Source of the DNA: an uncultured Candidatus Saccharibacteria bacterium
GTDB lineage: Bacteria; Patescibacteriota; Minisyncoccia; UBA6257; 2-01-FULL-56-20
Direction of reading: 5' to 3'
Length of the DNA: 33,704 bases
Assembly: GCA_964577245.1 (NCBI GenBank)
Contig: CAZNYI010000003.1
Location: forward strand, 1-33,704
The stretch's first letter is position 1. Every line of letters starts with the position of its first letter. Shown here piece after piece: positions 3,483 to 33,704 of the stretch. Under the pieces are notes generated by a model. That model saw nothing but the letters and a program-made list of their open reading frames with translations, had not been told where the DNA came from and made no database searches. A program made the translations under genes and the position numbers.

Positions 3483-3495
3483 TATAATCAATCAC
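3483..3495 (+). promoter_or_regulatory. -10 box placed for a leaderless transcript
   Basis: TATAAT 3483-3488, 7 nt, then ATG 3496. No SD. Confidence 0.5.
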
Positions 3496-3984
3496 ATGGA
3501 AGTCGTCCTAACCTCGAACGAACAAAAACTCGTAGACTACTCAAAAGAGGCGATCGTCGCTTATAACAAGATGCGCCACGAACGAGGCGACATTGATACG
3601 CTGTATTCTTTTGTGATGTCAGACAGCGGAAAAATATACGACGGCGTATGCTTTGAGCCAAATATCGCCCAAGCTACCGTTTGCGGAGAGCGCCATGCCA
3701 TACAAAATATGGTGTTGAAAGAATCATATAAAGCAAAGATAGAAACTATCGTGGTTGCCGATCCAGTTCCAGAAGTACAAAAAAAGAGCACCCCTCCTTG
3801 CGGTACGTGCCGACATCTCATTTGGCAGTTTGGTAATCCTGACGCGACGGTTATTCTGATGCAATATATCCAAGGGAAGAACGGGTGGACTTTTCCAAAG
3901 ATGGAGAAGTACACGATCAAAGAGTTATATCCGCATCCATATGAACCCGTGGAAGGTCTCTGGAATAACTGGGAGCCGAAGTAA
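3496..3984 (+). CDS. cytidine / blasticidin-S deaminase-like zinc deaminase
   Basis: CGERHAI corresponds to the C-A-E motif (Gly in place of Ala). PPCGTCRHLIW corresponds to PCxxC. Size (162 aa) fits the homotetrameric CDA family. Confidence 0.7.
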   Translation: MEVVLTSNEQKLVDYSKEAIVAYNKMRHERGDIDTLYSFVMSDSGKIYDGVCFEPNIAQATVCGERHAIQNMVLKESYKAKIETIVVADPVPEVQKKSTPPCGTCRHLIWQFGNPDATVILMQYIQGKNGWTFPKMEKYTIKELYPHPYEPVEGLWNNWEPK

Positions 3985-3987
3985 CCC

Positions 3988-4713
3988 ATGAAGGAATATT
4001 TTGGTAAGAGCTCCAAGGTATACGAGCAAACGCGGGGCAAGCGCTTTGTCCTCATCCCTGCCATAAGGCGCAATCTTAAAAAATCATCTAACGGGAAATT
4101 ATTGGATGTTGGCTGTGGGATAGGAGACCTATCATTAGTGGCAAATGCAAAAGGATATACCTATTATGGCGTTGATGTTTCAAAAGACATGATCGCGCGC
4201 GCCAAGCAGATTTTTCCAAGCGGAAAATTTATCGTGGCCTCCGCAACCAATTTCTCCTCCCATTTCAAAGAGAAGTTTGATGTCATATTATTGAGCATGC
4301 TTTTGCCGGCGATCAAAGAAGAGAAGGACCTGCTCAAAACCCTTCAAGAGTGCAAGAAAGTATTAAAACCCCACGGAGAAATTATCCTCGGCGAGCCCTA
4401 TCCGACATTTGATGGCTACATGCAGTCGTCTCTCTTCCAGCGTAAGGACGTTAAAACAAAATTTGCCGGGTATTTTGCGTCGGGCACTCCGGTTTCCATA
4501 ACGCACAAAATGGGCAAAGGGCGTCTCACGTTTAATGACTATCACCGGACGCTCGCCGACTACTGGAATGTAATAAAAAAAGCGGGGCTTGCGGTGGATC
4601 GTCTGGATGAATGCCCTCCCGACAAGACCGCCATGAAATTTGATAAATCATTCTATCGGGACAGGTCTCGTTTCCCAACGTATCTACTTCTCGTCTGTAA
4701 GGCGGGGGATTAA
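3988..4713 (+). CDS. class I SAM-dependent methyltransferase
   Basis: LLDVGCGIGDLS matches motif I, with downstream FDVILLSM and LKPHGEIILGEP. The gene starts 3 nt after the deaminase stop. Confidence 0.75.
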   Translation: MKEYFGKSSKVYEQTRGKRFVLIPAIRRNLKKSSNGKLLDVGCGIGDLSLVANAKGYTYYGVDVSKDMIARAKQIFPSGKFIVASATNFSSHFKEKFDVILLSMLLPAIKEEKDLLKTLQECKKVLKPHGEIILGEPYPTFDGYMQSSLFQRKDVKTKFAGYFASGTPVSITHKMGKGRLTFNDYHRTLADYWNVIKKAGLAVDRLDECPPDKTAMKFDKSFYRDRSRFPTYLLLVCKAGD

Positions 4714-4751
4714 ATAGAATCGCTCAAATGTCGTTGCGAGCTCTCCTTCGC

Positions 4752-4782
4752 AAAAAAAGGGAGCTATCTTGCGACAACTCCC
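4752..4782 (-). terminator. intrinsic terminator for the 4797-5117 gene
   Basis: Minus-strand stem GGGAGTT/AGCTCCC (plus 4759-4765 / 4776-4782) is followed by T7 (plus A-run 4752-4758). Confidence 0.7.
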
Positions 4783-4796
4783 GACGTGAGGTTCTT

Positions 4797-5117
4797 TCAC
4801 GATGCCTGCGAGGATGGGTCGGACGTTCTGACCGCAACGAATCCCTTGATGAAACAGTGTGGGAACTGGTGGTAGAGGTCGCCCCTATCTTCGAGGGAAA
4901 ATCCTGTCACCTGGGCGATGAGCATGAAAAGCGTTGCGATTTGGTACGCATTGAGAGCCGGCGGAAGCCACTGGCGGAGGCGGCGACCAGTTTCGATGTC
5001 GAAATTGATCCTGAGCCCATTCCGGCAAACGAACCAATCTCCATCCTGGAAGTCGTATAGCAGCGCATCGCCGGGCCGCAATTCCAAGCTCGTATCGTGG
5101 GCAATCTGACTTGTCAT
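4797..5117 (-). CDS. hypothetical protein, 106 aa
   Basis: SD AGGAGC (plus 5124-5129) lies 6 nt upstream of ATG 5117. Promoter 5136-5164 and terminator 4752-4782 flank it. C/G-ending codons dominate. A same-phase antisense ORF (4728-5060) competes. Confidence 0.5.
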   Translation of the reverse strand: MTSQIAHDTSLELRPGDALLYDFQDGDWFVCRNGLRINFDIETGRRLRQWLPPALNAYQIATLFMLIAQVTGFSLEDRGDLYHQFPHCFIKGFVAVRTSDPSSQAS

Positions 5118-5135
5118 GGGAATGCTCCTACTGGA

Positions 5136-5164
5136 CTTATAGCGTGGGCGGTTATGAAAGTCAA
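5136..5164 (-). promoter_or_regulatory. sigma70-like promoter
   Basis: On the minus strand: TTGACT (5159-5164), 17-nt spacer, TATAAG (5136-5141). Confidence 0.5.
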
Positions 5165-5223
5165 TAAATCGTAATGCTTCAATGGCTTGGAATAATCAAA
5201 ATCATTCACGATTACATCCTCCC

Positions 5224-5256
5224 TAAAATTTTAAAGGCGCAGCTAGTAGCTGCGCC
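5224..5256 (-). terminator. intrinsic terminator for the 5293-5577 gene
   Basis: Palindrome GGCGCAGC...GCTGCGCC at 5236-5256, followed on the minus strand by a T/A-rich run (plus 5224-5235). Confidence 0.7.
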
Positions 5257-5292
5257 AAGGCGAAAACGGATGGAAGTAGTTGTAGATCGCGC

Positions 5293-5577
5293 TTACGGGG
5301 CGACCTCTTGGTCGGCCGGAAATGAGTTGTTCCTCGCGAGCCACCGTTCCACAACCTTGGCCAGATCGGCCGGATTTGTGAGCTCGGGCGTCTCCTCGAG
5401 GAAGTAACCGTCTTCAAGTTCGGCGCGCATGGCCTCCAGCGCGCGTCCACGCCAAACGTTTTTGACGGCAAGGCCAATCTTCGCCGCCGCTGCCTCGATG
5501 GAGTCGGCAGCTACGATCCCGAACGGCATGCATTGCGTTCTTTCATCGGGAATCAGCCCGGTTAAGTCGAAGAGCAC
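5293..5577 (-). CDS. hypothetical protein, 94 aa
   Basis: GTG start at 5577 with SD AGGAGG (plus 5585-5590) 7 nt upstream. A terminator lies downstream. GC-rich. Confidence 0.5.
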   Translation of the reverse strand: MLFDLTGLIPDERTQCMPFGIVAADSIEAAAAKIGLAVKNVWRGRALEAMRAELEDGYFLEETPELTNPADLAKVVERWLARNNSFPADQEVAP

Positions 5578-5678
5578 GATCGCACCTCCTGAGAATGTTG
5601 TACATCACATTGCGTTGCCTTGTCAATTTAGCGCGCGCCGTTCAACCCCATCATTCTAAAATAATTCTAAAACCCACC

Positions 5679-5708
5679 TTGACTTCTCCCAAAATACGGC
5701 CTTATACT
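5679..5708 (+). promoter_or_regulatory. promoter placed for a leaderless hicB-like transcript
   Basis: TTGACT 5679-5684, 18-nt spacer, TATACT 5703-5708, then 8 nt to ATG 5717. Confidence 0.5.
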
Positions 5709-5716
5709 ACCTATTG

Positions 5717-6064
5717 ATGAACACTCTAAAAACGCGCGTCGTCAACACTAAAAAGAGCGGCATTGTTCACTTTGTCTATGTCTCAAACGACAAAGGTGCT
5801 TTTGGTATTTGTTTGGATTTTAATATTGTAGAAGAGGGTGCTACTGAGGCCGAGGTGCGTAAACACCTTGAAATCGCGGTTGCTTTGCACATAGAAACGG
5901 TTCGCGAAAAAAATCTTTCCGACGATCTTTTGAACCGTCTTGCTCCGCAAGAGTATTGGGATATGTATGATGACTTTCACACCAAGAAATCTGCCAAGGG
6001 AAAAAATTCTTTGCGGGTAGAGGGAATGGAATATACAAAAACCGCTTTGCCGATGGGCGTGTAA
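5717..6064 (+). CDS. HicB/UPF0150-like antitoxin
   Basis: GAFGICLDFNIVEEGATEAEVRKHLEIAVALHIE resembles the HicB N-terminal fold signature (G-x-T-x-E-E-A...A). It lies directly upstream of a HicA-like ORF. Confidence 0.5.
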   Translation: MNTLKTRVVNTKKSGIVHFVYVSNDKGAFGICLDFNIVEEGATEAEVRKHLEIAVALHIETVREKNLSDDLLNRLAPQEYWDMYDDFHTKKSAKGKNSLRVEGMEYTKTALPMGV

Positions 6065-6079
6065 TGCTTTCCAATCATC

Positions 6080-6352
6080 ATGGCGAGCGGCATTAGTAAT
6101 TGGAGCCATGATGACGTAATTGAGTTTTTGGAATACCACGGCTTTTCTTTCGGAAAAGAGCTCGGTGGTTCTCATAGCGCATGGATAAGCCACGATAGCA
6201 AATGTGTGGTTGATGTAAATCTAACGAAATCGTCCTATCCAGAATTAACTATGCTGACAATAATAAGCAACTCTGGGTTGAGTAAAGAACATTGGCGAAA
6301 GTGGACCACGCTCAGTAAAAGCCTGAAAAAGAAGCTGGTTTGTTGCCGCTAA
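6080..6352 (+). CDS. HicA-like mRNA interferase toxin
   Basis: DVIEFLEYHGFSFGKELGGSHSAW matches the HicA/YcfA pattern (L-x-x-x-G-F...GSH). 90 aa. Confidence 0.55.
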   Translation: MASGISNWSHDDVIEFLEYHGFSFGKELGGSHSAWISHDSKCVVDVNLTKSSYPELTMLTIISNSGLSKEHWRKWTTLSKSLKKKLVCCR

Positions 6353-6361
6353 GAAGGTCTT

Positions 6362-6832
6362 ATGCTAAAGCAATTCTCCTATCAATTTATCGCGGGTCCG
6401 TTCCCGACTCGTGAAGAGCTCCAAGGGGACTGGCAGATAGGCAATTGCCGTCGTGCCCTGCAGTACTATGTTTTGCAATCAAAAGGATTATTTCTAAAGC
6501 CAGACGAGGTATTGTCTCCGGGTGCTTATCATAAAACAGGGACTTTCGTATTTAAGAAGGGTGAGAAGATAGACCTTGGCGCGCTCAAAACCGGCGATAT
6601 AATTTATGCCGAACGGATCAGGAGTAAAGCCGGAGAGCTTGTTGATAAGAGCGAGCAGGGATTCCCAACCGAAGATGATTATATTACTTCACTGCACACC
6701 GCGATTTGGATCGGTGAACCCGGCAAGGAAATTTGGCATTCAACTGCGGTTGAGGGCAGTAGCTGTTCTTGGGTACTAGGACGCTTCCAATATTTTTATC
6801 GCATCGTTGCGGCGAAGAGAATCACGACCTAG
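6362..6832 (+). CDS. NlpC/P60-like (papain-fold) protein, tentative
   Basis: The ordered elements GNCRRALQYY, GDIIYA and LHTAIWIG...IWHST fit the Cys...GD-x-x-F...H-x-x-I-Y-x-G...H layout of C40 peptidases. By eye only. Confidence 0.4.
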   Translation: MLKQFSYQFIAGPFPTREELQGDWQIGNCRRALQYYVLQSKGLFLKPDEVLSPGAYHKTGTFVFKKGEKIDLGALKTGDIIYAERIRSKAGELVDKSEQGFPTEDDYITSLHTAIWIGEPGKEIWHSTAVEGSSCSWVLGRFQYFYRIVAAKRITT

Positions 6833-6870
6833 TTTGTGAAATTGTTCGAAGGCCATCCAGCCCCGCTCAA

Positions 6871-6910
6871 AATTAAAAAAGGCCCCGCTGCAACAGCTGA
6901 AGCGGGGCCT
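6871..6910 (-). terminator. intrinsic terminator for the 6936-7274 gene
   Basis: Stem AGGCCCCGCT 6880-6889 / AGCGGGGCCT 6901-6910. A T-run follows on the minus strand (plus A-run 6875-6880). Confidence 0.7.
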
Positions 6911-6935
6911 CTGGCTGGCGGCGGGGCGAGCGCGG

Positions 6936-7274
6936 CTACTTCCAGCCGCGGCATTCCTTCACGACGTGTGCGAGGGCTCTCAATTCCGCGGCGAGCGCAA
7001 AGTCATCGCTGAGCTCCATCTCGTCCGCTTGGTATTCCAGTGAACGGACGAGGCCTCGCGAGATGTTCATGTCGCCGGTTCGTGCTACTGAGCACAAAAT
7101 GGAGAAGCGGAGCATTTCGGTTTCCTCGGGAGATCTGTCCACTCTCGCGGTCAGACCATCGAGAAAGCTGTCGACTATCCGCCTCGTGGTTTGTGGAAGC
7201 GCCTCGTGCAGGAATTGAAGCAGGTTTTCCTTCTCTTCCTTTGAGAAGTGAACAGGTTTTCTTCGTATCTTCAT
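6936..7274 (-). CDS. hypothetical protein, 112 aa
   Basis: SD GGAGGT (plus 7283-7288) lies 8 nt upstream of ATG 7274. Promoter 7303-7332 and terminator 6871-6910 flank it. GC-rich. Confidence 0.55.
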   Translation of the reverse strand: MKIRRKPVHFSKEEKENLLQFLHEALPQTTRRIVDSFLDGLTARVDRSPEETEMLRFSILCSVARTGDMNISRGLVRSLEYQADEMELSDDFALAAELRALAHVVKECRGWK

Positions 7275-7302
7275 AAGGCCCTACCTCCGCAGAGCTAACT
7301 AC

Positions 7303-7332
7303 TTATTAACAAATAGGCGGGGGTAATGTCAA
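7303..7332 (-). promoter_or_regulatory. sigma70-like promoter
   Basis: On the minus strand: TTGACA (7327-7332), 18-nt spacer, TAATAA (7303-7308), then GT and AGTTAG (7295-7300). Confidence 0.4.
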
Positions 7333-7370
7333 ATACGTTTATCCGCCGTGTCCAGTCCTCCCTACAAATG

Positions 7371-7395
7371 AAAAAGAGGCGGATTGTTCCGCCTC
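7371..7395 (-). terminator. intrinsic terminator for the 7430-7606 ORF
   Basis: Stem GAGGCGG 7376-7382 / CCGCCTC 7389-7395. T5 follows on the minus strand (plus A-run 7371-7375). Confidence 0.7.
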
Positions 7396-7429
7396 CCTGG
7401 CTGACGATTTTGCGGTCGCGCAATGGGGG

Positions 7430-7606
7430 CTATCGGTAGACGGTCATCGACCTTACCTTGACGCTCCGAACTGCGCACTCGGGAACGTCAGCGTTCCGTC
7501 CGGCGGCGATGTGCTCTGCATAGCCCTGGTCAGTGAATAAACTCTCTTCGCCGCTCAACTCCTGTTCGTTGTCGGCGAATACAATTGCATACACAGTCGT
7601 AGACAT
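7430..7606 (-). CDS. small hypothetical protein, 58 aa (below the ORF-track size cut-off)
   Basis: Hand translation gives MSTTVYAIVFADNEQELSGEESLFTDQGYAEHIAAGRNADVPECAVRSVKVRSMTVYR with stop TAG at 7430-7432. SD GGAAGGGA is upstream. A TTGACG-N18-TATAAA promoter lies upstream and a terminator downstream. Confidence 0.4.
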   Translation of the reverse strand: MSTTVYAIVFADNEQELSGEESLFTDQGYAEHIAAGRNADVPECAVRSVKVRSMTVYR

Positions 7607-7689
7607 GAGTTGTTCCCTTCCTGAGTAGGTTTATAGCACGCAGGGATTCGTTGCGTCAACCGCCGCGCAAAAGTGATACTATATAGTAA

Positions 7690-8100
7690 ATGGAAAAAGA
7701 GGTAGTGAAGGTATCGGTTGTGGCGGGCGTCGTCCTTAAGAATGACGGGAAATATCTTCTCGTTCAAGAAAAACAGCCTCGTGCCTATAAGCTCTGGAAT
7801 CTTCCTGCGGGTCGTGTTGACGTTGGCGATACCATAGAACAAACCGCCATCAAAGAAGCAAAAGAAGAATGCGGTTTTGATGTTCGCTTGGGGCGCAAGA
7901 TCGGCATTTTTCAAAACACAGCGACCGAGCCATCGAGGCATATCTTTGAGGCAGAGATTATCGGGGGCACGCTTCAGTTTCCAGACGATGAGCTTCTCGA
8001 CGCGAGGTGGTTCACCATTGAAGAATTAAAAGTCATGGAAGGCGAACTTCGTGGGGGATGGATACTTGAGGCTATCAATGAAGCTTTATCCAAACCATGA
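7690..8100 (+). CDS. Nudix hydrolase
   Basis: Nudix box GRVDVGDTIEQTAIKEAKEECGF. An extended -10 (TGaTACTAT, 7674-7682) lies 7 nt before ATG 7690. Confidence 0.85.
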   Translation: MEKEVVKVSVVAGVVLKNDGKYLLVQEKQPRAYKLWNLPAGRVDVGDTIEQTAIKEAKEECGFDVRLGRKIGIFQNTATEPSRHIFEAEIIGGTLQFPDDELLDARWFTIEELKVMEGELRGGWILEAINEALSKP

Positions 8101-8612
8101 AACTGCTAAAAATACTTAACCCTCAAAACGCGACCGAGGATGAGATTGCAAAATATCCCGTGAGGAATGCGGCGAGGGCGATCTTGTGCGACAAAGAGGG
8201 GAACATAGGTATTTTAAATGTCACGAAGAGAGGCTACCACAAATTACCCGGCGGAGGGATTGAGGAAGGCGAAAACGTTCTTGATGCGCTCAAGCGGGAA
8301 TGCAAAGAAGAGCTCGGCTGTGATGTTGAGGCGCTCGGCGAAGTCGGGCAAATAATTGAATATCGGAAAATTTTCGAGCTCACCCAGAACTCCTTTTGTT
8401 ATTTGGCGAATCTCGTTGGGGAAAAGGGGACGCCTTCCCTTACGCAAGAGGAGGTTGAGAGTGGATTCGTGGTCCAATGGTTCCCCGTAAAAAAAGTGAT
8501 GTCTGTTCTTGCTTCAGATCGGCCGCAAAACGACGAGGGTAGTCTTTATATTGTTCCACGAGACAGAATTTTCCTTGAGGCAGCAAAAGAGCAACTAGAT
8601 AGGCTCTTATAA
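8097..8612 (+). CDS. Nudix hydrolase (second, divergent copy)
   Basis: Nudix box GGGIEEGENVLDALKRECKEELGC. Its ATG overlaps the upstream TGA (ATGA at 8097-8100). Confidence 0.85.
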   Translation: MKLLKILNPQNATEDEIAKYPVRNAARAILCDKEGNIGILNVTKRGYHKLPGGGIEEGENVLDALKRECKEELGCDVEALGEVGQIIEYRKIFELTQNSFCYLANLVGEKGTPSLTQEEVESGFVVQWFPVKKVMSVLASDRPQNDEGSLYIVPRDRIFLEAAKEQLDRLL

Positions 8613-8637
8613 AAAAGACCCCGCAACCATCGCGGGG
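8611..8637 (-). terminator. intrinsic terminator for the 8662-8889 gene
   Basis: Stem CCCCGC 8619-8624 / GCGGGG 8632-8637. A T-run follows on the minus strand (plus A6 at 8611-8616). Confidence 0.6.
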
Positions 8638-8661
8638 CCATCGGAACGGGGGTTGGCGTTG

Positions 8662-8889
8662 CTACCAGCAAGGATCGCCCCCCGGAAGCTCAACGAGGCT
8701 TTCTTCGCGCATGCCTTGCTGCGCTATCCGCTCGCGCGCATCGAGTATCTTGCGGCACTCCGCACAGTTCACGTCTTCCTGGGAAAGGGCGTAAACGTGA
8801 TTGCTCGGCCACTCCTCGGGAGGCTTGCCCTCAAAGAAACCGCACTCCGCCTGATATGTGCGGGTTATAGCGTGAATGCATGATGCCAT
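8662..8889 (-). CDS. hypothetical Cys-containing protein, 75 aa
   Basis: SD AAGGAG (plus 8896-8901) lies 6 nt upstream of ATG 8889. Promoter 8913-8941 and a downstream terminator flank it. GC-rich. Confidence 0.5.
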   Translation of the reverse strand: MASCIHAITRTYQAECGFFEGKPPEEWPSNHVYALSQEDVNCAECRKILDARERIAQQGMREESLVELPGGDPCW

Positions 8890-8912
8890 CTGGAACTCCT
8901 TTCACTAATCAC

Positions 8913-8941
8913 TTTATACGACACTAGGATTAGTAAGTCAA
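8913..8941 (-). promoter_or_regulatory. sigma70-like promoter
   Basis: On the minus strand: TTGACT (8936-8941), 17-nt spacer, TATAAA (8913-8918). Confidence 0.5.
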
Positions 8942-9041
8942 AACCGTTCGAGCATCGTCCAGCTCCGTGCGTTTATGAAAATGAAAGCCCCGCACCACGT
9001 GAAGGTTTGGGGCCTTCGGTGAATGCGGGGTTGTGCTGCGC

Positions 9042-9566
9042 TTACTTTGCGGTTGCTTCCGCGTCGATCTCGGCAAGCGCTGCCGAGAGCTTCTCTTTCT
9101 CGCGGCGGATCTGTCCGTTGAGCCAGCCGCTCAGCGTGAATCCTTTCGGGGGTTTGTAGAGGGTCACGGAGTAACCCCCTACGCTGTGATGATCTTTCAC
9201 GATGTAGCCTTCACGGATTTCCACCGCATAGGCCACCCGGTCCGGCTGGCCGAGACGGAGTAGTGCCTCGCCAACGGTCTCGCCGTCCTCGTATTCGTTG
9301 TCCCAGTTTGCCTCGTTGTGGGTGATGTCGATGGTCTGGCGCACCTCAGCGAGCAATTTCCCGCTGGCACTGAGGAGAAAAATCTTCGCGTCGTCCGCGA
9401 TGTCGACCAGGTTGCCGGTCGCGCCATCGTGGAGAGCCCGCTTCTCCATGAACTCATGGGAGATGCGGCTCACCCTTGTCTCCATGTCCTCTTTCCACTC
9501 GACTGGGAGAATCCACAGCAAACTCTCAAACTCCTGCCGAAACACGTGAATTCCAAAGCGATTCAT
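9042..9566 (-). CDS. hypothetical protein, 174 aa
   Basis: SD GGAAGGAGAG (plus 9571-9580) is upstream of ATG 9566. A hairpin lies downstream near 8985-9030. GC-rich, no recognisable domain. Confidence 0.55.
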   Translation of the reverse strand: MNRFGIHVFRQEFESLLWILPVEWKEDMETRVSRISHEFMEKRALHDGATGNLVDIADDAKIFLLSASGKLLAEVRQTIDITHNEANWDNEYEDGETVGEALLRLGQPDRVAYAVEIREGYIVKDHHSVGGYSVTLYKPPKGFTLSGWLNGQIRREKEKLSAALAEIDAEATAK

Positions 9567-9713
9567 AGGTCTCTCCTTCCGCTTCTCGCGGATGTCTATG
9601 GAGCCAGCATCTCGCTATCGGCTCCGGAGTGATGATATGAGGCGTTATTGCTTCTCGTGCCATATCGCACGCTTTCCGGATGGGGAAAGGAACGATGCCA
9701 AAATACTAACTAT

Positions 9714-9741
9714 ATTGTAGCATATTCATAAATCCTGTCAA
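9714..9741 (-). promoter_or_regulatory. sigma70-like promoter giving a roughly 140-nt leader
   Basis: On the minus strand: TTGACA (9736-9741), 16-nt spacer, TACAAT (9714-9719), then AT and AGTTAG (9706-9711). Confidence 0.5.
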
Positions 9742-9760
9742 GCTCCAGTAAAACAGCAAC

Positions 9761-9793
9761 AAAAAAGAAGGGTGGTCAGCCCCTTCTTGTTTT
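9761..9793. terminator. bidirectional-looking intrinsic terminator (serves the REC gene)
   Basis: Stem AAGAAGGG 9765-9772 / CCCTTCTT 9781-9788, with an A-run before and a T-run after. Confidence 0.75.
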
Positions 9794-9818
9794 ACGACCG
9801 TTGCTGCGCCCGCTGCGC

Positions 9819-10205: not shown

Positions 10206-10227
10206 TACTGCCCCCTAACTAATCGGG

Positions 10228-10982: not shown

Positions 10983-11000
10983 TTTCGTAGCGGAGGCCAC

Positions 11001-26404: not shown

Positions 26405-28111
26405 ATGAAGGAAAAACTGATCCCATCGGAACCGCACTTGCGGAGTGTTGAAAAAACCCTGCTCCTTTTGGGATCGGAAGAACTTCCAGACGGCACTTCG
26501 GTCAACTGGAAAGATCTCCACGATAAAGTGAAGCCATATCATTCAATGTATGAACTTACGGAGAATGTGCGGGAAGCAGTGCGTGAGTATGTAGCGAGAA
26601 AGATACCGAAACTGAAAGATGCCGTTCCTGCAATTGGGGAATTGGGGGAAGAAGAATTATTGGATGCGCTGACGCACAATTGGTACGAAACCGTAGAAGA
26701 GGAAACGGGCGGGCAGCGCCGCGAAGTTTTGCTTGCGGAGGCGGCGCATGTGGTGAAGCGGATAGAAACACTCGCAGAGCGAAAACTATTGCAAAGTGCT
26801 TCTCCTGAACAACTTCGCGAATTAGACGTAGAGCCTTCCATGCGAGACCTGCTTGTTGATGTTCTGGAAATTTCGGCAAAAGCAGATCCGCTTTTCGTAA
26901 GATTTCTGGCGTTTTCGCAATTGAGCAAAAAACCTCCGGAGGGGGTTCAAATGACGGGAATCCGGCTTGAGAACGATCCCACCGCGCATACCATTGCGGA
27001 ACTTTTTCCGCACGAGACGCAATTTATTTCGGAGCGGCTTCGTGTACTTTCCCAAAAAGAAGCGGATTGGAAAAAATATCCGGGCGGCGATGTCTTTGCG
27101 CACTATTTAGAGACGCTCGGTAAATTTTTCGGTACCGCGGACACAACGGAAGCCGCAAAGCTTTACGATGAGCTTATTGGATATTACAAAGAAGTCGTTG
27201 CGAGCGGCTTCCCGGTGCTTCTTACGCCGACGACCGAAGGTCATTATAAGCCACCGTATTTGGATCCGGAGCTTAAGGTGTTGGTGTCAAATTCAGAAAC
27301 AAAGACCGAAGAAGCGGCGTTTATGAGGGCGCAAGGAATGCTTGCGGAAAGCTTGGGAGAGATTGACGAAGAAGGGTTCAAAAAGGACGTGCTGGACCAC
27401 GACGTGAGGGTTTCTTTGGTGCTTGGTGGTTTTGGATCAAATCTGATGTTCCCCGGAGTGGCGCAAGAGGAGCCGGCATACCTTCTTTTCCTCAATGAGC
27501 AGGTCCGTGTCTATGATTCCCGATTCCCTTCGTACCTTGATTTTATTGGGAACGCAAAGGGTTCATTTGCGGAACTTCCGGAACAGGAAAAGAAAGAATA
27601 TATAGAACGGATGTCGCGCATGGCAACCATGCTCCATGAGTTCGGCCATCCGGTGCACGCACGGAAGTCGGAAGAGAGCCAGCGTTTGGGGGATGCGCCG
27701 CTCATCGCGATAGACGAAGTAAAGGCAGAAACGCTTTGGCGCGCCCTTGTTCCTTCGATGATCGAGAAAGGTCTTGTGGGCACGCGGGAGCAGTGGGCGG
27801 AGGCGATGCTCGCCGTGTCGCTTTTGTATGTGAACGACCAGCCCGATGGCGATTCCTATTATTCCGCCGGCGTTTATAACTTGAACACGCTTTTTGAAAA
27901 AGGGATCGTAACTTTTGAGAACAATAAAGTGGTAATAACCGATTTTGACGCGTACTATGTTGCGATGAAAGAAGATGCGGTCGGCGTGCTTGCGCTGTTT
28001 AGCGACGAAACCATGACGGAACGCAAAGCGTCCGCGTGGATCAAGGCGCAATGCGCGCCAAACGAAACGGTCCAAAAAGTTATTGACTTTGTGCGGAAGG
28101 CGTCCGGTTAG
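26405..28111 (+). CDS. zinc metallopeptidase, HEFGH motif, possibly M3/PepF-like
   Basis: MLHEFGHPVH is followed by acidic residues (IDEVKAE) about 25-30 aa downstream. The size (about 568 aa) and motif position are similar to oligoendopeptidase F. Family assignment is tentative. Confidence 0.5.
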   Translation: MKEKLIPSEPHLRSVEKTLLLLGSEELPDGTSVNWKDLHDKVKPYHSMYELTENVREAVREYVARKIPKLKDAVPAIGELGEEELLDALTHNWYETVEEETGGQRREVLLAEAAHVVKRIETLAERKLLQSASPEQLRELDVEPSMRDLLVDVLEISAKADPLFVRFLAFSQLSKKPPEGVQMTGIRLENDPTAHTIAELFPHETQFISERLRVLSQKEADWKKYPGGDVFAHYLETLGKFFGTADTTEAAKLYDELIGYYKEVVASGFPVLLTPTTEGHYKPPYLDPELKVLVSNSETKTEEAAFMRAQGMLAESLGEIDEEGFKKDVLDHDVRVSLVLGGFGSNLMFPGVAQEEPAYLLFLNEQVRVYDSRFPSYLDFIGNAKGSFAELPEQEKKEYIERMSRMATMLHEFGHPVHARKSEESQRLGDAPLIAIDEVKAETLWRALVPSMIEKGLVGTREQWAEAMLAVSLLYVNDQPDGDSYYSAGVYNLNTLFEKGIVTFENNKVVITDFDAYYVAMKEDAVGVLALFSDETMTERKASAWIKAQCAPNETVQKVIDFVRKASG

Positions 28112-28146
28112 CCCAAAGATAAATTTTCGTGATATATTACTAAAGT

Positions 28147-28590
28147 ATGAAGCGCGACTTTACGCATGCTCTCGTGAGGGATCTCGAAGAGAATGTCTAT
28201 TGCCGTCTGCGCCCATCAAAGGTGCACGGCGTTGGTATTTTTGCGATCCGCGATATTCCAAAGGGAAAGGATCCGTTCAAAAGTTTTTTGCCGTATAAAT
28301 TCGTCGCGGTTCCGGCCGCTTCGGTATTTGATAATCCCCATATTGATCCGGCGGTGAAGGAGTTTGCGAGCGATATGTATTCGGTCATGAAAGGCAAGCT
28401 CTACCTTTATAAAGGAGGCATGAACGGCATCGACATCAGCTTTTTCCTGAACCATTCCAAAAAACCAAATCTGACCGTACGGAAAGGCGGAGAGGCCTTT
28501 GTTACCGCGCGGAAAATAAAGAAAGGGGAGGAGCTTTTTTCCGATCAGAGCACCTATTCGGAGAATTTTGTTGATACGCGAAGAAGCTAA
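28147..28590 (+). CDS. small SET-domain protein
   Basis: HGVGIFAIRDIPKGKD, FLNHSKKPN and IKKGEELF. The extended -10 TGaTATATT lies 8 nt upstream of the ATG. Confidence 0.65.
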   Translation: MKRDFTHALVRDLEENVYCRLRPSKVHGVGIFAIRDIPKGKDPFKSFLPYKFVAVPAASVFDNPHIDPAVKEFASDMYSVMKGKLYLYKGGMNGIDISFFLNHSKKPNLTVRKGGEAFVTARKIKKGEELFSDQSTYSENFVDTRRS

Positions 28591-28595
28591 CGGCA

Positions 28596-29507
28596 ATGGA
28601 GCAATTTAACGACACGCTTGCGGAGCAATCACGGATAGAGCGGGCGATCCAGAAATATGGTTATGCGTCCGAGCATAATTTTTGGTGGTATCAATATTAT
28701 CAATATTGGTATAACCCGCCGCAGCGCAATATTTTCGTGGAAACGGATCACGGTGCGCTCTTCACGGCGTATAACGAGCGCGACAACGAATATTTTGTTG
28801 TATTTGATCCGATGGCGCCGGAGCAGTTCCGCGTCCCACTTCTTATGGAATATATAACATGGGTATTTTCAAACACTTCCGCGAAGAAGATCTGGTTTCA
28901 GCTTGAAAAAGGCGCGCGGCCGGCATTCTTGCGCGCCCTGCCGCCGTCATGCGCTTCCCGCCGTATCTATTACACTATGGAATCGCCGATCTACGACCTC
29001 CGAAAGTTCGACCCGGCGCTTCCGGGCGGTCACTACAAGACCCTGCGCAAAGAAATGCACAAATTCTACCGCGAACATACGGTTACCGTAGCGGACGCGA
29101 AAACGTATGAAGATCGCGAAAGTCTGCACGCCATCGTGAACCATTGGAAGAAGAAGCGCCCCAACCACGAGCGGGGAATGATGGGGGTGTATCACCAGAT
29201 GATAGACGGCAATTTTGAAGGTACGAAGGAGGCGCGCGTTTTTTTGGTGGATGGGGTTCCCGCCGGCATCAACGCCGGATGGATGATCCCGAATAGCGAC
29301 CGCTTTTACGGTGCGGTCGGCGTCCACGATTATTCGGTTGATGATCTTGGCGCGATGCTGTATCTCGAAGATTTAGTGTGGTTGAAGGCACACGGTTACC
29401 GCGAAGCGGACATGGGCGGCGGCGAACGATCGCTCACGGCATTCAAAAGTAAATTCCAACCGCAATCTTTTTATGAGACGGTGGTCTTTTCTGTCGCAAA
29501 GAAATGA
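28596..29507 (+). CDS. DUF2156/MprF-C-like or Fem-like GNAT-fold transferase, tentative
   Basis: The C-terminal GGGERSLTAFKSKFQP resembles the FK-x-KF-x-P block of aminoacyl-phosphatidylglycerol synthase C-domains. About 300 aa. By eye only. Confidence 0.4.
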   Translation: MEQFNDTLAEQSRIERAIQKYGYASEHNFWWYQYYQYWYNPPQRNIFVETDHGALFTAYNERDNEYFVVFDPMAPEQFRVPLLMEYITWVFSNTSAKKIWFQLEKGARPAFLRALPPSCASRRIYYTMESPIYDLRKFDPALPGGHYKTLRKEMHKFYREHTVTVADAKTYEDRESLHAIVNHWKKKRPNHERGMMGVYHQMIDGNFEGTKEARVFLVDGVPAGINAGWMIPNSDRFYGAVGVHDYSVDDLGAMLYLEDLVWLKAHGYREADMGGGERSLTAFKSKFQPQSFYETVVFSVAKK

Positions 29508-29534
29508 GGTATGGTAGTTATATAGGATAACGAT

Positions 29535-30959
29535 ATGGAAAAAGAGAAAGAGGGTGCGACGATAGTGAAAGAAGCGATTGTTGAAACAACTGCGCCAGTG
29601 GCGGTTGTTTCGGCTCCGGTGGTTGCGCCCGTCGTTGCCCCCGCTCCCGCCGAACCGGAAAAGTTCTGCAAGAAGTTTCTTTTCGTGACCGACGAAGCGC
29701 TCGTGGTGGATTTAGCATGGAAGGTAAAAGAGGAGGGCAACGAAGTGAAGATGTATATCGGCAATGAAGACGACCAGGATATCGGCGACGGTTTTTTTGA
29801 AAAAGTGGATGACTGGAAAACGTGCGTTGACTGGGCGGACGTGATCGTGTTTGACGATGTGATCGCCGGCGACGACGGCTTCGGGAAAGTGGCGGACGAG
29901 CTGCGCGCGAAGGGCAAATTGGTGGTGGGCGGGAGCGACTATACCGACCGGCTGGAGATAGACCGCGAGTTCGGTCAGCAAGAGATGAAGGCTGCGGGCA
30001 TGCTTGTTTTGGCGCACTGGGACTTTGATAACTTCGGTGATGCGATAGAATTTTTGAAAGGAAATCCGGGGCGCTATGTCTTCAAGCCGTCCGAGGGCGA
30101 CCTGGATTGGCACATGAAGAATCTTCTCTTTATTGGCCAGGAAGAAGATGGCAAAGACCTGCTTGAAGTGTTAGAGCACAACCGCAAAAGCTGGTCGCGC
30201 AAGATCAAGCGGTTCCAGCTGCAAAAGGTGGCCACGGGCGTTGAGATCGCGGTCGGCGCGTTCTTCAATGGCACCGATTTTATCACGCCCGTCAATATCA
30301 ACTTTGAACACAAAAAATTATTCCCGGGCGACATCGGTCCGCCGACCGGCGAGATGGGCACGCTCATGTTTTGGGCAGACCCAAATAGTTTTTTCCAGGC
30401 GACCCTCGGCAAAATGTTGGAAAAACTGCGCGCGAGCAAATATGTGGGCTATATCGACGTAAATTGCATCGCGAACGCTCGCGGCGTGTATCCGTTGGAA
30501 TTCACCTCGCGCTTCGGATATCCCACGATCAGCATCCACATGGAAGGTATCTTGAGCCCGATGGGAGAGTTCCTTTATGCGCTTGCAAAAGGGGAGCAGT
30601 ATCCCTTGAAAACCCAAAAAGGATTCCAGGTGGGCGTGGTGATCGCAACGCCGCCGTTCCCGTATCGCGACGACAAAATGTTCCAGGTCTATAAAGATAT
30701 TTCCATCCTGTTCAAAAAATCCAATCTGGACGGCGTCCATCTTGGTGATGTAAAAATGGTGGACGGCGACTGGAAGCTTGCCGGCAAGAGCGGCTATGTG
30801 CTCGTCGTGACCGGTTCAAACACCACCGTGGAGGATGCGCGCCGTCAGGCCTACCGCCGCATAGAAAACATAATGCTTCAAAATATGTTCTATCGCACGG
30901 ATATCGGCGCGAAGTGGTCGGGAGAAAGCGACGAGTTGCACACGTGGGGCGTCTTGTAA
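29535..30959 (+). CDS. PurD-like ATP-grasp ligase with an Ala/Pro/Val-rich N-terminal linker
   Basis: LAWKV and NFEHKKLFPGDIGPPTGEMGT parallel the PurD blocks ALAWKL and DHKR...GD-x-GPNTGGMG. The N-terminus carries APVAVVSAPVVAPVVAPAPAEPE. Confidence 0.65.
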   Translation: MEKEKEGATIVKEAIVETTAPVAVVSAPVVAPVVAPAPAEPEKFCKKFLFVTDEALVVDLAWKVKEEGNEVKMYIGNEDDQDIGDGFFEKVDDWKTCVDWADVIVFDDVIAGDDGFGKVADELRAKGKLVVGGSDYTDRLEIDREFGQQEMKAAGMLVLAHWDFDNFGDAIEFLKGNPGRYVFKPSEGDLDWHMKNLLFIGQEEDGKDLLEVLEHNRKSWSRKIKRFQLQKVATGVEIAVGAFFNGTDFITPVNINFEHKKLFPGDIGPPTGEMGTLMFWADPNSFFQATLGKMLEKLRASKYVGYIDVNCIANARGVYPLEFTSRFGYPTISIHMEGILSPMGEFLYALAKGEQYPLKTQKGFQVGVVIATPPFPYRDDKMFQVYKDISILFKKSNLDGVHLGDVKMVDGDWKLAGKSGYVLVVTGSNTTVEDARRQAYRRIENIMLQNMFYRTDIGAKWSGESDELHTWGVL

Positions 30960-30971
30960 TACACTATTCCG

Positions 30972-31328
30972 ATGACCATTGATGAATTTTTGGCGAACGA
31001 TCTGCGGGTGGGGAAAATTGTGGCGGCGGAGCGTGTGGAAGGTTCGGAAAAACTTTTGAAGCTGCAGGTGGACCTTGGCGAGGGCGGTGCCGAAGGCGCG
31101 CCCGCGGATGCAGCACCCGTGCTGCGGCAGATCGTGTCAGGGATCGCGAAGGCCTATGCGCCGGAAGCGCTCGTGGGCCGCGAAGTGGTGATCATCGCAA
31201 ATCTTGAGCCGCGCACCATTATGGGCCTGCCGAGCCAAGGGATGATCCTTGCCGCACACGGCGAAGGCGGCGTGCCGGTTTTGCTTAAGCCGTGGGCTGC
31301 TGTTCCGCCCGGCTCCAAAATAACATGA
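30972..31328 (+). CDS. tRNA-binding domain protein (CsaA/Trbp111-like)
   Basis: DLRVGKIVAAERVEGSEKLLKLQVDLGE...VIIANLEPRTIMGLPSQGMILAA matches the tRNA_bind OB-fold signature. Confidence 0.8.
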   Translation: MTIDEFLANDLRVGKIVAAERVEGSEKLLKLQVDLGEGGAEGAPADAAPVLRQIVSGIAKAYAPEALVGREVVIIANLEPRTIMGLPSQGMILAAHGEGGVPVLLKPWAAVPPGSKIT

Positions 31329-31840
31329 ACAAAACAATCTCTATAATCCTCTTTGTGGTGCTCGCGGTCGCGGTGGTCGGCGCGGCGATGTGGTACAACA
31401 ATAAATCCGATCAAGCGATGCAGCAGGCGCAGACGCAGGCGGCGATCATTGCTCAGCAGGAACAAGCACAAACCTTAGCAAAAATTATGCAAAACTTTAA
31501 AATAACCGACACAGTGGTGGGGACGGGCGCGGTAGTGAATAACGGCGACACGGTGAACGTGCTCTACACGGGCACGCTTCCCGACGGCACAGTGTTTGAC
31601 GCATCGTCAAAGCACGGGAACCAACCATTCAGCTTTACGGTGGGCGCGCAAAACGTTATTCAAGGATGGGATCTCGGCGTGGTCGGCATGAAGGTAGGCG
31701 GCACGCGCGAACTTACGATCCCGCCGGAACTTGGTTACGGCGCAGGTGGCTATCCGCCGATCATTCCGGGGAACACAACGTTGCACTTCACGATCCAGCT
31801 TCTTTCCATTGCGACGAGCTCGCCGACGAGCACGCAGTAG
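31325..31840 (+). CDS. membrane-anchored FKBP-type peptidyl-prolyl isomerase
   Basis: VLYTGTLPDGTVFDAS, VIQGWDLGVVGMKVGGTRELTIPPELGYG and LHFTIQLL. N-terminal helix ISIILFVVLAVAVVGAAMW. ATG 31325 overlaps the upstream TGA. Confidence 0.85.
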   Translation: MNKTISIILFVVLAVAVVGAAMWYNNKSDQAMQQAQTQAAIIAQQEQAQTLAKIMQNFKITDTVVGTGAVVNNGDTVNVLYTGTLPDGTVFDASSKHGNQPFSFTVGAQNVIQGWDLGVVGMKVGGTRELTIPPELGYGAGGYPPIIPGNTTLHFTIQLLSIATSSPTSTQ

Positions 31841-31873
31841 GTTTGCAATAAACGGGGTATATAAAAAGCACAT

Positions 31874-31903
31874 GGGTGTCCGTAAGGACACCCGTTTGTG
31901 TTA
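31874..31903 (+). terminator. intrinsic terminator
   Basis: Stem GGGTGTCC 31874-31881 / GGACACCC 31886-31893 with a GTAA loop, then GTTTGTGTT. Confidence 0.8.
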
Positions 31904-32041
31904 GTGGCTCGGCATTGATTGGATCAATACCGTCGCCTTGTCTAAGAACGCCAAGAGAAAGGCGCTCAGGGCTCGCAGCACGTCTGGCATAAAAATACCG
32001 AAGACGATGATGAGTGCTGCGAAACCGATGGCTTTCGACAT
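31901..32041 (-). CDS. possible small membrane protein, 46 aa
   Basis: MSKAIGFAALIIVFGIFMPDVLRALSAFLLAFL is strongly hydrophobic. The start is ambiguous (the tracked ORF extends to 32086) and the SD is weak. Confidence 0.3.
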   Translation of the reverse strand: MSKAIGFAALIIVFGIFMPDVLRALSAFLLAFLDKATVLIQSMPSH

Positions 32042-32299
32042 AGCCTTGGTGCAGGGAGGGGTTGGTTTATAGCAGCCCGACCACACTGCCGGCCATGTCT
32101 TGGCCTTCCTCCTGCGGAAAACGTCTGATCGCTTAGGCGATCGTTTGGCGATCGGTCGGTGCCGCTTCCCGCAAGAGGAAGGTTGTTTTGGATGTGCTAC
32201 CCTTATTTTATGGCAAAAACTTGACGCAGGTCAAGCTTTGGGGCTTAATCCCATTTTAGAATTTTTTAATGTTTGTTTGGCATAATGAAAATAAAAAAC

Positions 32300-32974
32300 A
32301 TGCGCGTACTACTTTTAGAAGACGAAAAAGACATTGCAGATTACGTCACGACCAGCCTCAAGGCCCAGAACTTTGCGGTGGATTGTGCGATCACGGGTGA
32401 AAAAGGCCTTATGTGGGCCAAAGTGAATTCATATGACGTGGGAATTTTTGATATCAAGCTGGCCGGCGAACAAACTGGCTTGCAAGTGTGCAAAAACCTA
32501 CGCGAGAACGGGAAAACATTTCCCATTATTATTCTTTCAGTGACGGGTGACGTGACAACGAAAATCGAAGCACTCAATCTTGGCGCGGACGATTATCTAG
32601 CGAAGCCATTCTCATTCGCGGAACTTTTGGCACGCGTGAATGCACTCATGCGACGCGAGAAAAAGCTCACGGGGCCGCTTTTGAGTGTGAACGGCCTTAC
32701 GATGGATACGCAGGGGCGCATCGTGATGCGCGAGGGCAAGCGCATTGAGCTGAACCGCAAAGAATTCGCGTTGCTTGAATATTTAATGCGGAATCCAGGA
32801 ATCACCTTAACGCGCGCGATGATCTTGGAGCACGTGTGGGATATGAATGCCGACCCATTCACGAATACGGTGGATGTCCATATTCGCTTTCTGCGCGAGA
32901 AGGTAGATGTCGGCTACACAAAAAAGCTTTTGAAAACCGTGCACGGGTTCGGGTATCGGCTAGAGGACCAGTAG
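32300..32974 (+). CDS. OmpR/PhoB-family response regulator
   Basis: MRVLLLEDE, DVGIFDIKL (acceptor Asp), DDYLAKPF, and the winged-helix end TVHGFGYRL. In-frame alternative starts lie at 32285 and 32273. Confidence 0.85.
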   Translation: MRVLLLEDEKDIADYVTTSLKAQNFAVDCAITGEKGLMWAKVNSYDVGIFDIKLAGEQTGLQVCKNLRENGKTFPIIILSVTGDVTTKIEALNLGADDYLAKPFSFAELLARVNALMRREKKLTGPLLSVNGLTMDTQGRIVMREGKRIELNRKEFALLEYLMRNPGITLTRAMILEHVWDMNADPFTNTVDVHIRFLREKVDVGYTKKLLKTVHGFGYRLEDQ

Positions 32975-32976
32975 CT

Positions 32977-33363
32977 TTACGTTTTGAGTTTTTTGCCAAC
33001 TTCCGACGGAGCGTCATAAAAAATGACGCTTTTCGTTATCCCCATCATGGTTTCAGAAATATCGGATCCGGTTTTTGCTATAACGACGATCGGTATGTTT
33101 TTGGCAAACGCATAGCCGGCTTCTATCCCGAGTCCAACCCCTTTTTCGCTAAGTTCAACGATCAACACGTCAGCGCTGTCGATTTCTTTGAAAGTGATGC
33201 TCATAAGCTCCTCGGGCGAAAATTTTTGTTCACCCCATTTTTCATAATCGCGAACCATGACTCGCGTTTCAATGCCGACGGCGCGTAACGAGTCCGACAG
33301 TTGTTCGATCCGTTCCCTATTGCTAAAATCCGGATGGAATTTGATTGCAAGATATGCCTTCAT
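32977..33363 (-). CDS. nucleoside 2-deoxyribosyltransferase-like protein
   Basis: SADVLIVELSEKGVGLGIEAGYAFAKNIPIVVI resembles the D-x-G-T-x-x-E-x-G-Y-A block of the family. By eye only. Confidence 0.55.
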   Translation of the reverse strand: MKAYLAIKFHPDFSNRERIEQLSDSLRAVGIETRVMVRDYEKWGEQKFSPEELMSITFKEIDSADVLIVELSEKGVGLGIEAGYAFAKNIPIVVIAKTGSDISETMMGITKSVIFYDAPSEVGKKLKT

Positions 33364-33402
33364 TTACTTATCAATGGTAACAAATGCGCTATAATGAAGC
33401 CA

Positions 33403-33704
33403 ATGATCGCTAAGAGTGACCTGCCGCGGCTGCGGCGCCGTGCGGCACGCATCATCACCATTTTAAAAAAGCTTTTCCCAAACGCGAAGATCGCGCTTCG
33501 TTATCGCACCGATTGGGAGTTGCTGGTCGCGGTGCAGCTTTCCGCACAATGCACCGATAAAAAAGTGAACGAGGTGACGCCGGCGCTTTTCAAGAAATAT
33601 CAGAAGCTGGACGATTACGTGCGCGCGAAGCCCCGCGAATTTGAGCGTGCCATTCATGCCTGCGGTTTTTATCGTGCAAAGACGCGCAATATTTTGGCGG
33701 CGGC
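33403..33704 (+). CDS. nth: endonuclease III (3' end outside the window)
   Basis: LFPNAKIALRYRTDWELLVAVQLSAQCTDKKVNEVTPALF is a typical Nth N-terminus. TATAAT 33390-33395 lies 7 nt upstream of ATG 33403; ATG 33394 is in frame but overlaps the -10 box. Confidence 0.85.
   Translation, partial: MIAKSDLPRLRRRAARIITILKKLFPNAKIALRYRTDWELLVAVQLSAQCTDKKVNEVTPALFKKYQKLDDYVRAKPREFERAIHACGFYRAKTRNILAA

Follow-up and report, generated by a model that had tools for sequence, protein, structure and literature searches.

In Bacteroidota the anti-Shine–Dalgarno (anti-SD) sequence is occluded and a few genes, such as rpsU, bear a Shine–Dalgarno (SD) sequence. Phage morons and genomic islets are self-contained units of promoter, gene and terminator that are inserted between conserved genes. 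In group C of the GeneMarkS-2 classification, which comprises mainly Actinobacteria and Deinococcus-Thermus, a Pribnow box lies 6–8 nucleotides (nt) from the start codon and 25–50% of first genes are leaderless; the passages of that paper on group C do not mention Parcubacteria (Lomsadze et al. 2018; PMC6028130). Tsurumaki, Saito, Tomita and Kanai describe a Parcubacteria subgroup that has neither the anti-SD motif nor ribosomal protein uL1, and in which SD helices are supposed not to form (2022, RNA 28:1041; PMC9297842). Here we describe how genes begin in contig CAZNYI010000003.1, a stretch of 33,704 nt that we call the window, and in the genome to which it belongs: behind a −10 promoter box set directly before the start codon, behind an SD sequence, or behind neither.

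The window is the entire contig C3 of a metagenome-assembled genome, G000 (998 kb, 115 contigs, 52% GC, 85% complete). Its SecA relatives place G000 in the Patescibacteria, or candidate phyla radiation (CPR), among lineages of Parcubacteria type: SecA is 53–58% identical to that of Colwell-, Jorgensen-, Wildermuth- and Brennerbacteria and 70% identical to that of one Patescibacteria genome. The gene set comprises 999 genes from home-made calls with a dicodon model. One of five same-genus genomes, the complete 887,956-bp chromosome G002, serves as replicate and as orthologue test.

We consider it probable that three start-site architectures coexist in this genome. In the first, an extended −10 element (TGnTATAAT, with a weak −35 box) ends 6 nt, and up to 8 nt, before the AUG, a signature that is present at no fewer than 18% of genes, core as well as accessory, and is conserved in orthologues; the A of the AUG would be the first nucleotide transcribed, and ribosomes would bind this 5′-terminal AUG. 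In the second there is no signal, and translation would be coupled or re-initiated independently of an SD. The third would consist of about 100 stand-alone SD-led units, nearly all of them accessory orphan genes of unassigned function. In each, a promoter with a good −35 box would be followed by a leader of 10–140 nt, with AAGGAGG 4–9 nt ahead of the start codon, and the unit would often close with an intrinsic terminator. These SD-led genes would be an accessory pool that belongs to the Patescibacteria themselves and passes from genome to genome together with self-sufficient, portable signals for expression, and the donor and host genomes of the pool would include some whose core genes use SD. 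The original prediction, made from the window, had proposed two initiation regimes, a −10 box and a classic SD, that track base composition. Both patterns hold genome-wide, but genes without any signal make up a third architecture.

The SD-led genes and their origin

With starts chosen without regard to the motif, 157 SD 5-mers at spacers of 3–11 nt were observed in G000 against 35 expected (about 4.5-fold), and G002 shows a small excess (59 against 35). SD sequences stand ahead of 43% of genes with at least 60% GC, 19% of those at 56–60% GC and 2.9% of those below 52% GC, the last being the rate in decoy windows. The predicted link to base composition is therefore real, but it exists only among accessory genes. 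For genes without a G002 homologue the SD share rises from 8% (below 48% GC) to 53–57% (56% GC or more), whereas for orthologous core genes it stays at 0–12%, the chance level, in every GC bin. Hence the link is a property of the gene class and not of GC.

The view that the GC-rich cassettes are a class of their own was borne out. Only 20 of the 144 SD-led genes (14%) have a homologue in G002, compared with 64% of leaderless genes, and the enrichment test counts 119 of the 144 as having none (odds ratio 6.8, p = 3e-21). They are mostly singletons; paralogues were found for just 13 of the 144, which rules out a single proliferating family. Sigma-70 promoters with 10 or more of the 12 consensus positions lie 17–150 nt upstream of 29% of SD-led genes but of 5% of genes without signal, and a terminator lies within about 70 nt of 30% of them, as against 4–7% in the other classes.

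In the window, tRNA-Glu borders an accessory mosaic of 15 kb (205–15341) that has no counterpart at the syntenic G002 locus, and the core block that follows (15342–33363) is syntenic with G002 448420–434655. The ten AGGAGG-type sites of the original prediction are all present, with strand and spacing that fit a start codon. The tRNA and the SD-led units, with their open reading frames (ORFs), are as follows.

129–204, plus strand: tRNA-Glu(CUC), bordering the accessory mosaic
1824–3412, plus strand: SD-led cassette with promoter TTGACA-N18-TACCAT (1824–1853), leader of about 75 nt, AGGAGGG (1920–1926), 470-residue orphan ORF (1934–3346, 60% GC) and terminator (3385–3412)
4759–5129, minus strand: SD-led cassette with AGGAGC (5124–5129), ORF (4797–5117) and terminator (4782–4759)
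5293–5692, minus strand: SD-led cassette with promoter-like sequence (5692–5664), AGGAGGTG (SD at 5585–5590) and GTG-start ORF (5293–5577, 60% GC)
6936–7288, minus strand: SD-led gene with GGAGGT (7283–7288) and ORF (6936–7274)
8617–8901, minus strand: small SD-led unit with AAGGAG (8896–8901), ATG (8889–8887) and terminator (8639–8617); it was missed by the gene caller and the end of its ORF is not fixed
9042–9741, minus strand: SD-led cassette with promoter TTGACA-N16-TACAAT (9741–9714), two-hairpin leader (about 9640–9567), AGGAG (9573–9577) and 174-residue ORF (9042–9566)
9765–10256, minus strand: SD-led cassette with promoter TTGACT-N17-TATAAT (10256–10228), ORF (9819–10187) and terminator (9788–9765)
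10856–11426, plus strand: SD-led cassette with promoter-like sequence (10856–10884), GGAGG (10992–10996) and ORF (11001–11426, 61% GC)
11539–11942, plus strand: SD-led gene with AGGAGGTG (11539–11546) and ORF (11550–11942)
14684–15311, minus strand: SD-led cassette with promoter-like sequence (15311–15283), AGGAGA (15254–15259), TTG-start ORF (14729–15247, 61% GC) and terminator (14708–14684)
19461–20032, minus strand: SD-led gene within the core block, with GGAGGTG (20026–20032) 4 nt before a TTG start

No Pfam family was found for 11 SD-led proteins of the window. The mosaic also holds a GmrSD-type restriction endonuclease gene (536–1801, plus strand; N-terminal domain, Pfam E = 4e-16), which has only 38% GC and belongs to a second accessory class, AT-rich and without SD. 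At 12640–12669 (plus strand) lies a perfect sigma-70 promoter (12 of 12 positions, TTGACA-N18-TATAAT with TG), the strongest consensus promoter within the first 20 kb; it stands 39 nt ahead of a 225-residue orphan gene (12709–13386) that has only a weak GAGG site.

The original prediction took foreign-style signals as support for a different origin or a separately translated regulon. On the reading of foreign origin, the SD-led genes would be recent imports from SD-using, GC-richer donors; their SD, promoter and terminator would be left over from the donor, and the SD would be a non-functional relic in this host. Such an origin would account for genes that are largely absent from the same-genus genome, that are concentrated in a tRNA-adjacent mosaic and that sit in a clade whose 16S rRNA has no anti-SD, but it does not agree with their synonymous sites. 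At third codon positions the GC fraction (GC3) of SD-led accessory genes is 0.657, close to the 0.643 of core orthologues, whereas non-SD accessory genes are AT-shifted (0.559). With GC3 equal to that of the core, there is little to support import from a GC-rich donor. The difference lies instead at the first and second positions (0.584 and 0.433 in SD-led genes, 0.572 and 0.399 in core orthologues) and in the amino acids encoded, with more Arg (6.4% against 5.3%), less Lys (4.3% against 6.5%) and also less Ile. It is the composition of the proteins, at codon positions 1 and 2, that raises the GC of SD-led genes, and not a foreign composition at synonymous sites.

Three SD-led proteins were searched against 5.8 billion proteins. 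For 14729–15247 no homologue was found among them. For 1934–3346 there were two (48% identity), both on short CPR-like contigs and GC-richer than their neighbours; each has a TTGACA −35 box, a 17-nt spacer, a −10 box (TATAAT or TATCTT), a leader and an AAGGAG or AAGGAAG site. One of these homologues (L141:310–2618) divergently adjoins tpiA, and in the window tpiA (15342–16100) borders the mosaic, so the tpiA flank may be a recurrent slot for accessory genes.

The third protein, of 174 residues (9042–9566), has 45 homologues, the named ones mostly from Patescibacteria or Parcubacteria and one labelled Omnitrophica. Including the window, seven loci of this family were compared and all seven neighbourhoods differ; at the six homologue loci the neighbours are chromosomal housekeeping genes (rpmG, secDF, ftsK, purB/rpsB, a GST gene and an RNase J gene). 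All six homologues keep AAGGAG-type sites behind a two-hairpin leader. The GC of the cassette (0.49–0.58) is above that of the host in five genomes and below it in two (L147 and L148). Host usage varies as well: around the L146 locus rpsB, tsf and other core genes carry SD sequences, whereas core genes at L143 and L147 have none.

A confident AlphaFold model of the 174-residue protein (pLDDT 84) predicts a beta-rich core and a long C-terminal helix. Compared with the PDB, the model gave no fold match (best TM-score 0.27), and the protein has no Pfam or PHROG family. The leader of the cassette (window 9567–9640, minus strand; L144–L148) is conserved in six genomes as two hairpins with similar GCGAGAWGC loop regions, the second of which abuts AAGGAG; compensatory changes affect 4 of 14 predicted pairs, and Rfam gave no match below E = 1. 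A regulatory role for the leader, with a protein or a ligand as its binding partner, is possible. At L144:4686–6394 the cassette is followed by four small genes (67–147 residues), each with GGAGG or AAGGAG, forming a small island of SD-led genes beside an SD-less secDF. A phage origin of the SD-led genes found no support: ten SD-led window proteins gave no PHROG match and the 174-residue family has no relative in IMG/VR.

One SD-led gene speaks against foreign origin. The gene at 19461–20021, the only SD-led gene in the core block, encodes 186 residues with a signal-peptide-like N terminus and adjoins secA. It has been inherited vertically across the genus with its SD intact; the five same-genus genomes and one family-level genome each have an orthologue (39–56% identity). 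All seven copies have a −35 box (TGGACAAA or TTGACA) and a −10 box, which is of the extended form TGnTAnAAT in five of the seven. Their leaders are 25–50 nt long and differ between lineages, and each is followed by GGAGGTG, AGGAGG, GGGAG or AAGGAG, 4–7 nt before TTG, GTG or ATG.

Taken across the class, foreign origin is weakly supported. The absence of SD-led genes from relatives speaks for it, as does the occurrence of one cassette family in a genome whose core genes use SD (L146). Native-like GC3, homologues found only on contigs of Patescibacteria type, a cassette less GC-rich than its host in L147 and L148, an SD kept in seven vertically related copies despite diverged leaders, and the roughly 100 independent single-gene imports that would be required all speak against it. 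We therefore think it unlikely that the SD-led genes are recent imports carrying a relic, and prefer a mobile accessory pool native to Patescibacteria.

The 16S tail and the reading of the SD

The original prediction had pointed to the 3′ end of the 16S rRNA as the place to look for an anti-SD. No 16S gene is present in the G000 assembly, but one was found in 20 of 31 relatives, and the 3′ end could be read past helix 45 in 13 of these: G001, G002 and G003 of the same genus, five family-level and five order-level relatives. The CCUCC anti-SD is absent from all 13. In ten of the tails CAAUUAAAC replaces CACCUCCUUA after helix 45, with GGAUCAAUUAAAC in G001–G003; the other three, all at order level, have a different sequence that is also free of CCUCC. 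Moreover, uL1 (PF00687) was found in none of 13 genomes, namely G000 and 12 relatives, whereas the controls were detected in 14 of 14. With relatives whose 16S has no anti-SD, the "classic SD" initiation of the original prediction cannot simply be assumed, and the SD would not act here through classical pairing with the 16S tail.

Loss of the anti-SD may have occurred more than once in Patescibacteria, as two distinct tails suggest: the genome with the L143 locus (16S at L149, G031:C1) has a different anti-SD-less tail, GGAUCACAUCAUU / CACAUCAUU, from the CAAUUAAAC of the window's order (L081–L094). In G004, a genome of the same genus, the 16S gene (L095, G004:C4:3730–4180, minus strand) diverges directly after GAAGTCGTA and its match spans 2.5 kb, as if an insertion or an intron interrupted the gene close to its 3′ end.

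The SD of 19461–20021 nevertheless persists. G001, G002, G003 and G014 each have an SD-led orthologue of this gene while their own 16S has no anti-SD. That the motif has been retained by vertical descent in genomes lacking its classical partner is the best evidence for its being still under selection, and suggests as much.

One account of this retention would be ordinary SD function, either because the 16S rRNA of G000 ends in CCUCC after all, and not in the AAUUAAAC tail, or because the mature 3′ end differs from the gene. The missing 16S gene of G000 leaves room for this, and the SD excess is about 120 matches in G000 but about 24 in G002. However, the tail GGAUCAAUUAAAC is conserved in the same-genus relatives and in most family- and order-level relatives with readable 3′ ends, and the loss of uL1 is common to G000 and its relatives. 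SD sequences are also missing from the core genes of G000, an odd state of affairs if its ribosome had an anti-SD. Nor was a displaced tail or a conserved internal CCUCC found. Sequences resembling GGATCACCTCCTTA (up to two mismatches) occur only inside coding sequence or beside tRNA-like sequence (GGTTCGAATCC, opposite strand), and no conserved CCUCC exists anywhere within the 16S genes of the relatives. We judge ordinary SD function to be quite improbable, more so than recent import.

Other candidate partners were tried. A motif complementary to the new tail (GUUUAAUUGAUC) shows no positional enrichment upstream of genes in G000 or G002. A scan of intergenic CCTCC and GGAGG for a CCUCC-bearing small RNA gave only the SDs of small ORFs, hairpins and tRNAs. 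As protein readers, S1 and bS21 were uninformative, a short S1-like protein (about 365 residues) being present in relatives and a bS21 match in nine of nine genomes including G000. We tentatively entertain the idea that the SD is read by something besides the 16S 3′ tail, be it a protein, another RNA or another rRNA site, and would thereby provide a second initiation channel, kept by selection, for swappable accessory orphans, while leaderless and SD-free initiation would serve the core genes.

Predicted leaderless starts and genes without signal

The second half of the prediction, that many genes start 6–8 nt behind a −10 box and are leaderless, is strongly supported by the sequence. The genome-wide tally of −10-to-start distances that had been proposed shows enrichment at spacers of 6–8 nt in both G000 and G002. 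When TANNNT was counted before the 5′-most start of the 999 genes, a peak appeared at spacer 6 (122 genes, 12.4%), compared with 1–4% at neighbouring spacers and 0.3–1.3% at internal in-frame starts. The same spacing emerged from a test made without gene calls, in which every ATG behind a TATAAT-like box (5 or more of 6 positions matching) was scored for an ORF of at least 100 codons. In G000, spacer 6 gave 171 cases, and 71% of them open such an ORF; the background is about 60 cases, about 20% of them with the ORF. In G002, cases and cases with an ORF were 125 and 86 at spacer 6, 100 and 63 at spacer 7, and 91 and 40 at spacer 8, against a background of about 45 and 12.

By strict criteria about 180 of the 999 genes (178) are leaderless, with the box 6–8 nt ahead of the start. 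About half of the boxes are of the extended form TGnTATAAT: TG occupies positions −15/−14 in 86 of 175 boxes in G000 and 87 of 175 in G002, where the dinucleotide background is 0.056 (binomial p ~1e-58). A pyrimidine occupies position −1 in 84% of cases, directly ahead of the A of ATG at +1, and ATG is the start codon of 94% of leaderless genes. The arrangement is also conserved: of the 91 leaderless genes in G000 that have an orthologue in G002, 52 are leaderless there as well, and the orthologues of a further 19 have weaker boxes. Transcription from the AUG itself, and the way in which ribosomes would bind such messages, are what established knowledge of leaderless mRNAs leads us to infer.

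Could TANNNT at this distance be an AU-rich translational enhancer on leadered mRNAs instead of a promoter? Upstream regions of genes without signal are A/T-rich too, and the −35 boxes of the leaderless class are weak. An enhancer would, however, explain neither the TG two bases ahead of half of the boxes, a hallmark of extended −10 promoters, nor the pyrimidine at −1 and A at +1, which fit a transcription start, nor a spacer peak that is sharp to one nucleotide. Promoters with at least 10 of 12 matches upstream of leaderless genes, moreover, lie at spacers of 6–8 nt in 23 of 25 cases. The enhancer explanation is very improbable, and a leaderless start behind an extended −10 promoter is preferred.

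That housekeeping and AT-rich genes are leaderless, as had been proposed, is true of some core genes but too simple. The strict share is only about 18–30% of genes; among proxy first genes it is 21% in G000 and 29% in G002, to which weaker boxes would add. Among core genes the supposed connection with AT-rich composition did not hold, since GC-rich core genes are leaderless as often as others. At secA, G002 has TATAAT 8 nt ahead of the ATG (443599), whereas no comparable box was called at the G000 start (20160), so the initiation architecture of one core gene can differ within the genus.

Neither a −10 box nor an SD precedes the majority of the remaining core genes, which lie within 10 nt of the upstream gene or overlap it. 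Where the gap to an upstream neighbour on the same strand is under 60 nt, 59% of genes in G000 and 67% in G002 are without signal. The gaps before genes of this class are mostly 10 nt or less, or overlaps, with 33 exact ATGA overlaps in each genome, and 49% of the class have a G002 homologue. Coupling or re-initiation is likely in these genes.

All ten −10 sites listed from the window were found as written and on the right strands, and in seven of the ten the start is the 5′-most in frame. Two more were added, at 26339–26355 and 31342–31357.

3483–3498, plus strand: TATAAT, 7 nt, ATG of a deaminase-like gene (3496–3984), whose G002 orthologue has TATAAT 6 nt ahead of ATG
5679–5719, plus strand: TTGACT-N18-TATACT, 8 nt, ATG; leaderless start
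7674–7692, plus strand: TGaTACTAT, 7 nt, ATG of a NUDIX gene (7690–8100)
12586–12602, minus strand: TACTAT, 8 nt, ATG of gene 12313–12588
13529–13565, plus strand: TTGACT-N16-TACACT, 6 nt, ATG; leaderless start
15327–15344, plus strand: TGgTAAGAT, 6 nt, ATG of tpiA, the first gene of the core block
23241–23255, plus strand: TATAAT, 6 nt, ATG; leaderless start
24947–24961, plus strand: TATAAT, 6 nt, GTG; leaderless start
26339–26355, minus strand: TATATT, 8 nt, ATG of gene 25577–26341, whose G002 orthologue has the identical box and spacing
28130–28149, plus strand: TGaTATATT, 8 nt, ATG; leaderless start
31342–31357, plus strand: TATAAT, 7 nt, GTG of gene 31355–31840, whose G002 orthologue is also in the leaderless class
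33390–33405, plus strand: TATAAT, 7 nt, ATG of a gene that runs past the contig end

Weighing the three architectures against known systems

Several points count against the proposed reading of three architectures with a native, mobile SD-led pool. Absence of the anti-SD from G000 itself is deduced from relatives and from the loss of uL1, its own 16S gene being absent from the assembly. Selection on the SD in place is argued from one orthologue family. That cassettes move between genomes is something we infer from how patchily they are distributed and from their lack of synteny, and neither a mobility gene nor a vector was found for them: among the 19 window proteins scanned, Pfam gave no integrase, transposase or phage family. 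The gene calls and starts are home-made, and the classes of 178 strict leaderless and 144 SD-led genes hold false positives and false negatives. About 35 of the SD matches are expected from chance. G000 and G002 are only about 70% identical in amino-acid sequence, so some genes counted as accessory may have diverged past detection.

The remaining explanation, that the link between SD and GC is an artefact of chance G-rich motifs in GC-rich DNA or of mis-called starts, is hardly credible: our first classification did pick starts by motif, but the link holds with motif-free starts, decoy windows at −25 and −40 give a flat 2–4% in all GC bins, core genes at 56–60% GC have only 6% SD, and the flanks of GGAG are specifically enriched for A at −2 and −1 and for G at +1, giving the motif AAGGAGG.

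A functional SD in these genes would point to an unknown way of mRNA recognition; as a relic or 'passport' signal, the SD would be the mark, and a rough date, of extensive gene flow between ultra-small bacteria. Gene finders that assume SD would mis-call starts in such genomes, where the motif could serve as a flag for accessory genes.

Separate publications cover leaderless initiation and the loss of the anti-SD in some Parcubacteria. In full-text searches we found no paper that reports the combination of core genes that are leaderless or SD-free with about 100 accessory genes that keep a canonical SD, a full promoter and a terminator, in a clade without anti-SD. In the literature on Patescibacteria, CPR, Saccharibacteria and Parcubacteria we found no report of leaderless promoters or of a retained SD-led accessory class, and the only CPR transcription-start set that we found is for Nanosynbacter lyticus (PMC12641261), none having turned up for the clade of the window.

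The comparison with described systems is one of partial likenesses. Like morons, the SD-led genes come singly, each with a promoter and a terminator to itself; their composition is atypical, their spread patchy and their insertion sites variable. Unlike morons, they have no phage context, no PHROG match (ten proteins), no IMG/VR relative (the 174-residue family) and a native-like GC3. As in the Bacteroidota type (GeneMarkS-2 group B), most genes have no SD and a small special set has one. Bacteroidota keep the anti-SD in their 16S, however, whereas this clade has replaced it, and the SD-bearing set here consists of accessory orphans and not of a ribosomal-protein autoregulation gene. As in the uL1-less Parcubacteria subgroup, CCUCCU is missing from the 16S of the relatives and uL1 has been lost in G000 and 12 relatives; in contrast to what is seen here, the sections of that paper on the subgroup describe neither leaderless promoters nor a retained SD-led class (PMC9297842). 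Closest in its promoters is group C, where a Pribnow box likewise lies 6–8 nt ahead of many first genes and leaderless genes exist together with leadered genes that have a ribosome-binding site. In the group C account the remaining genes, including operon-internal ones, use SD and the 16S has an anti-SD (PMC6028130), whereas here the core genes do without SD, the 16S of the clade has no anti-SD and the SD is confined to accessory orphans.

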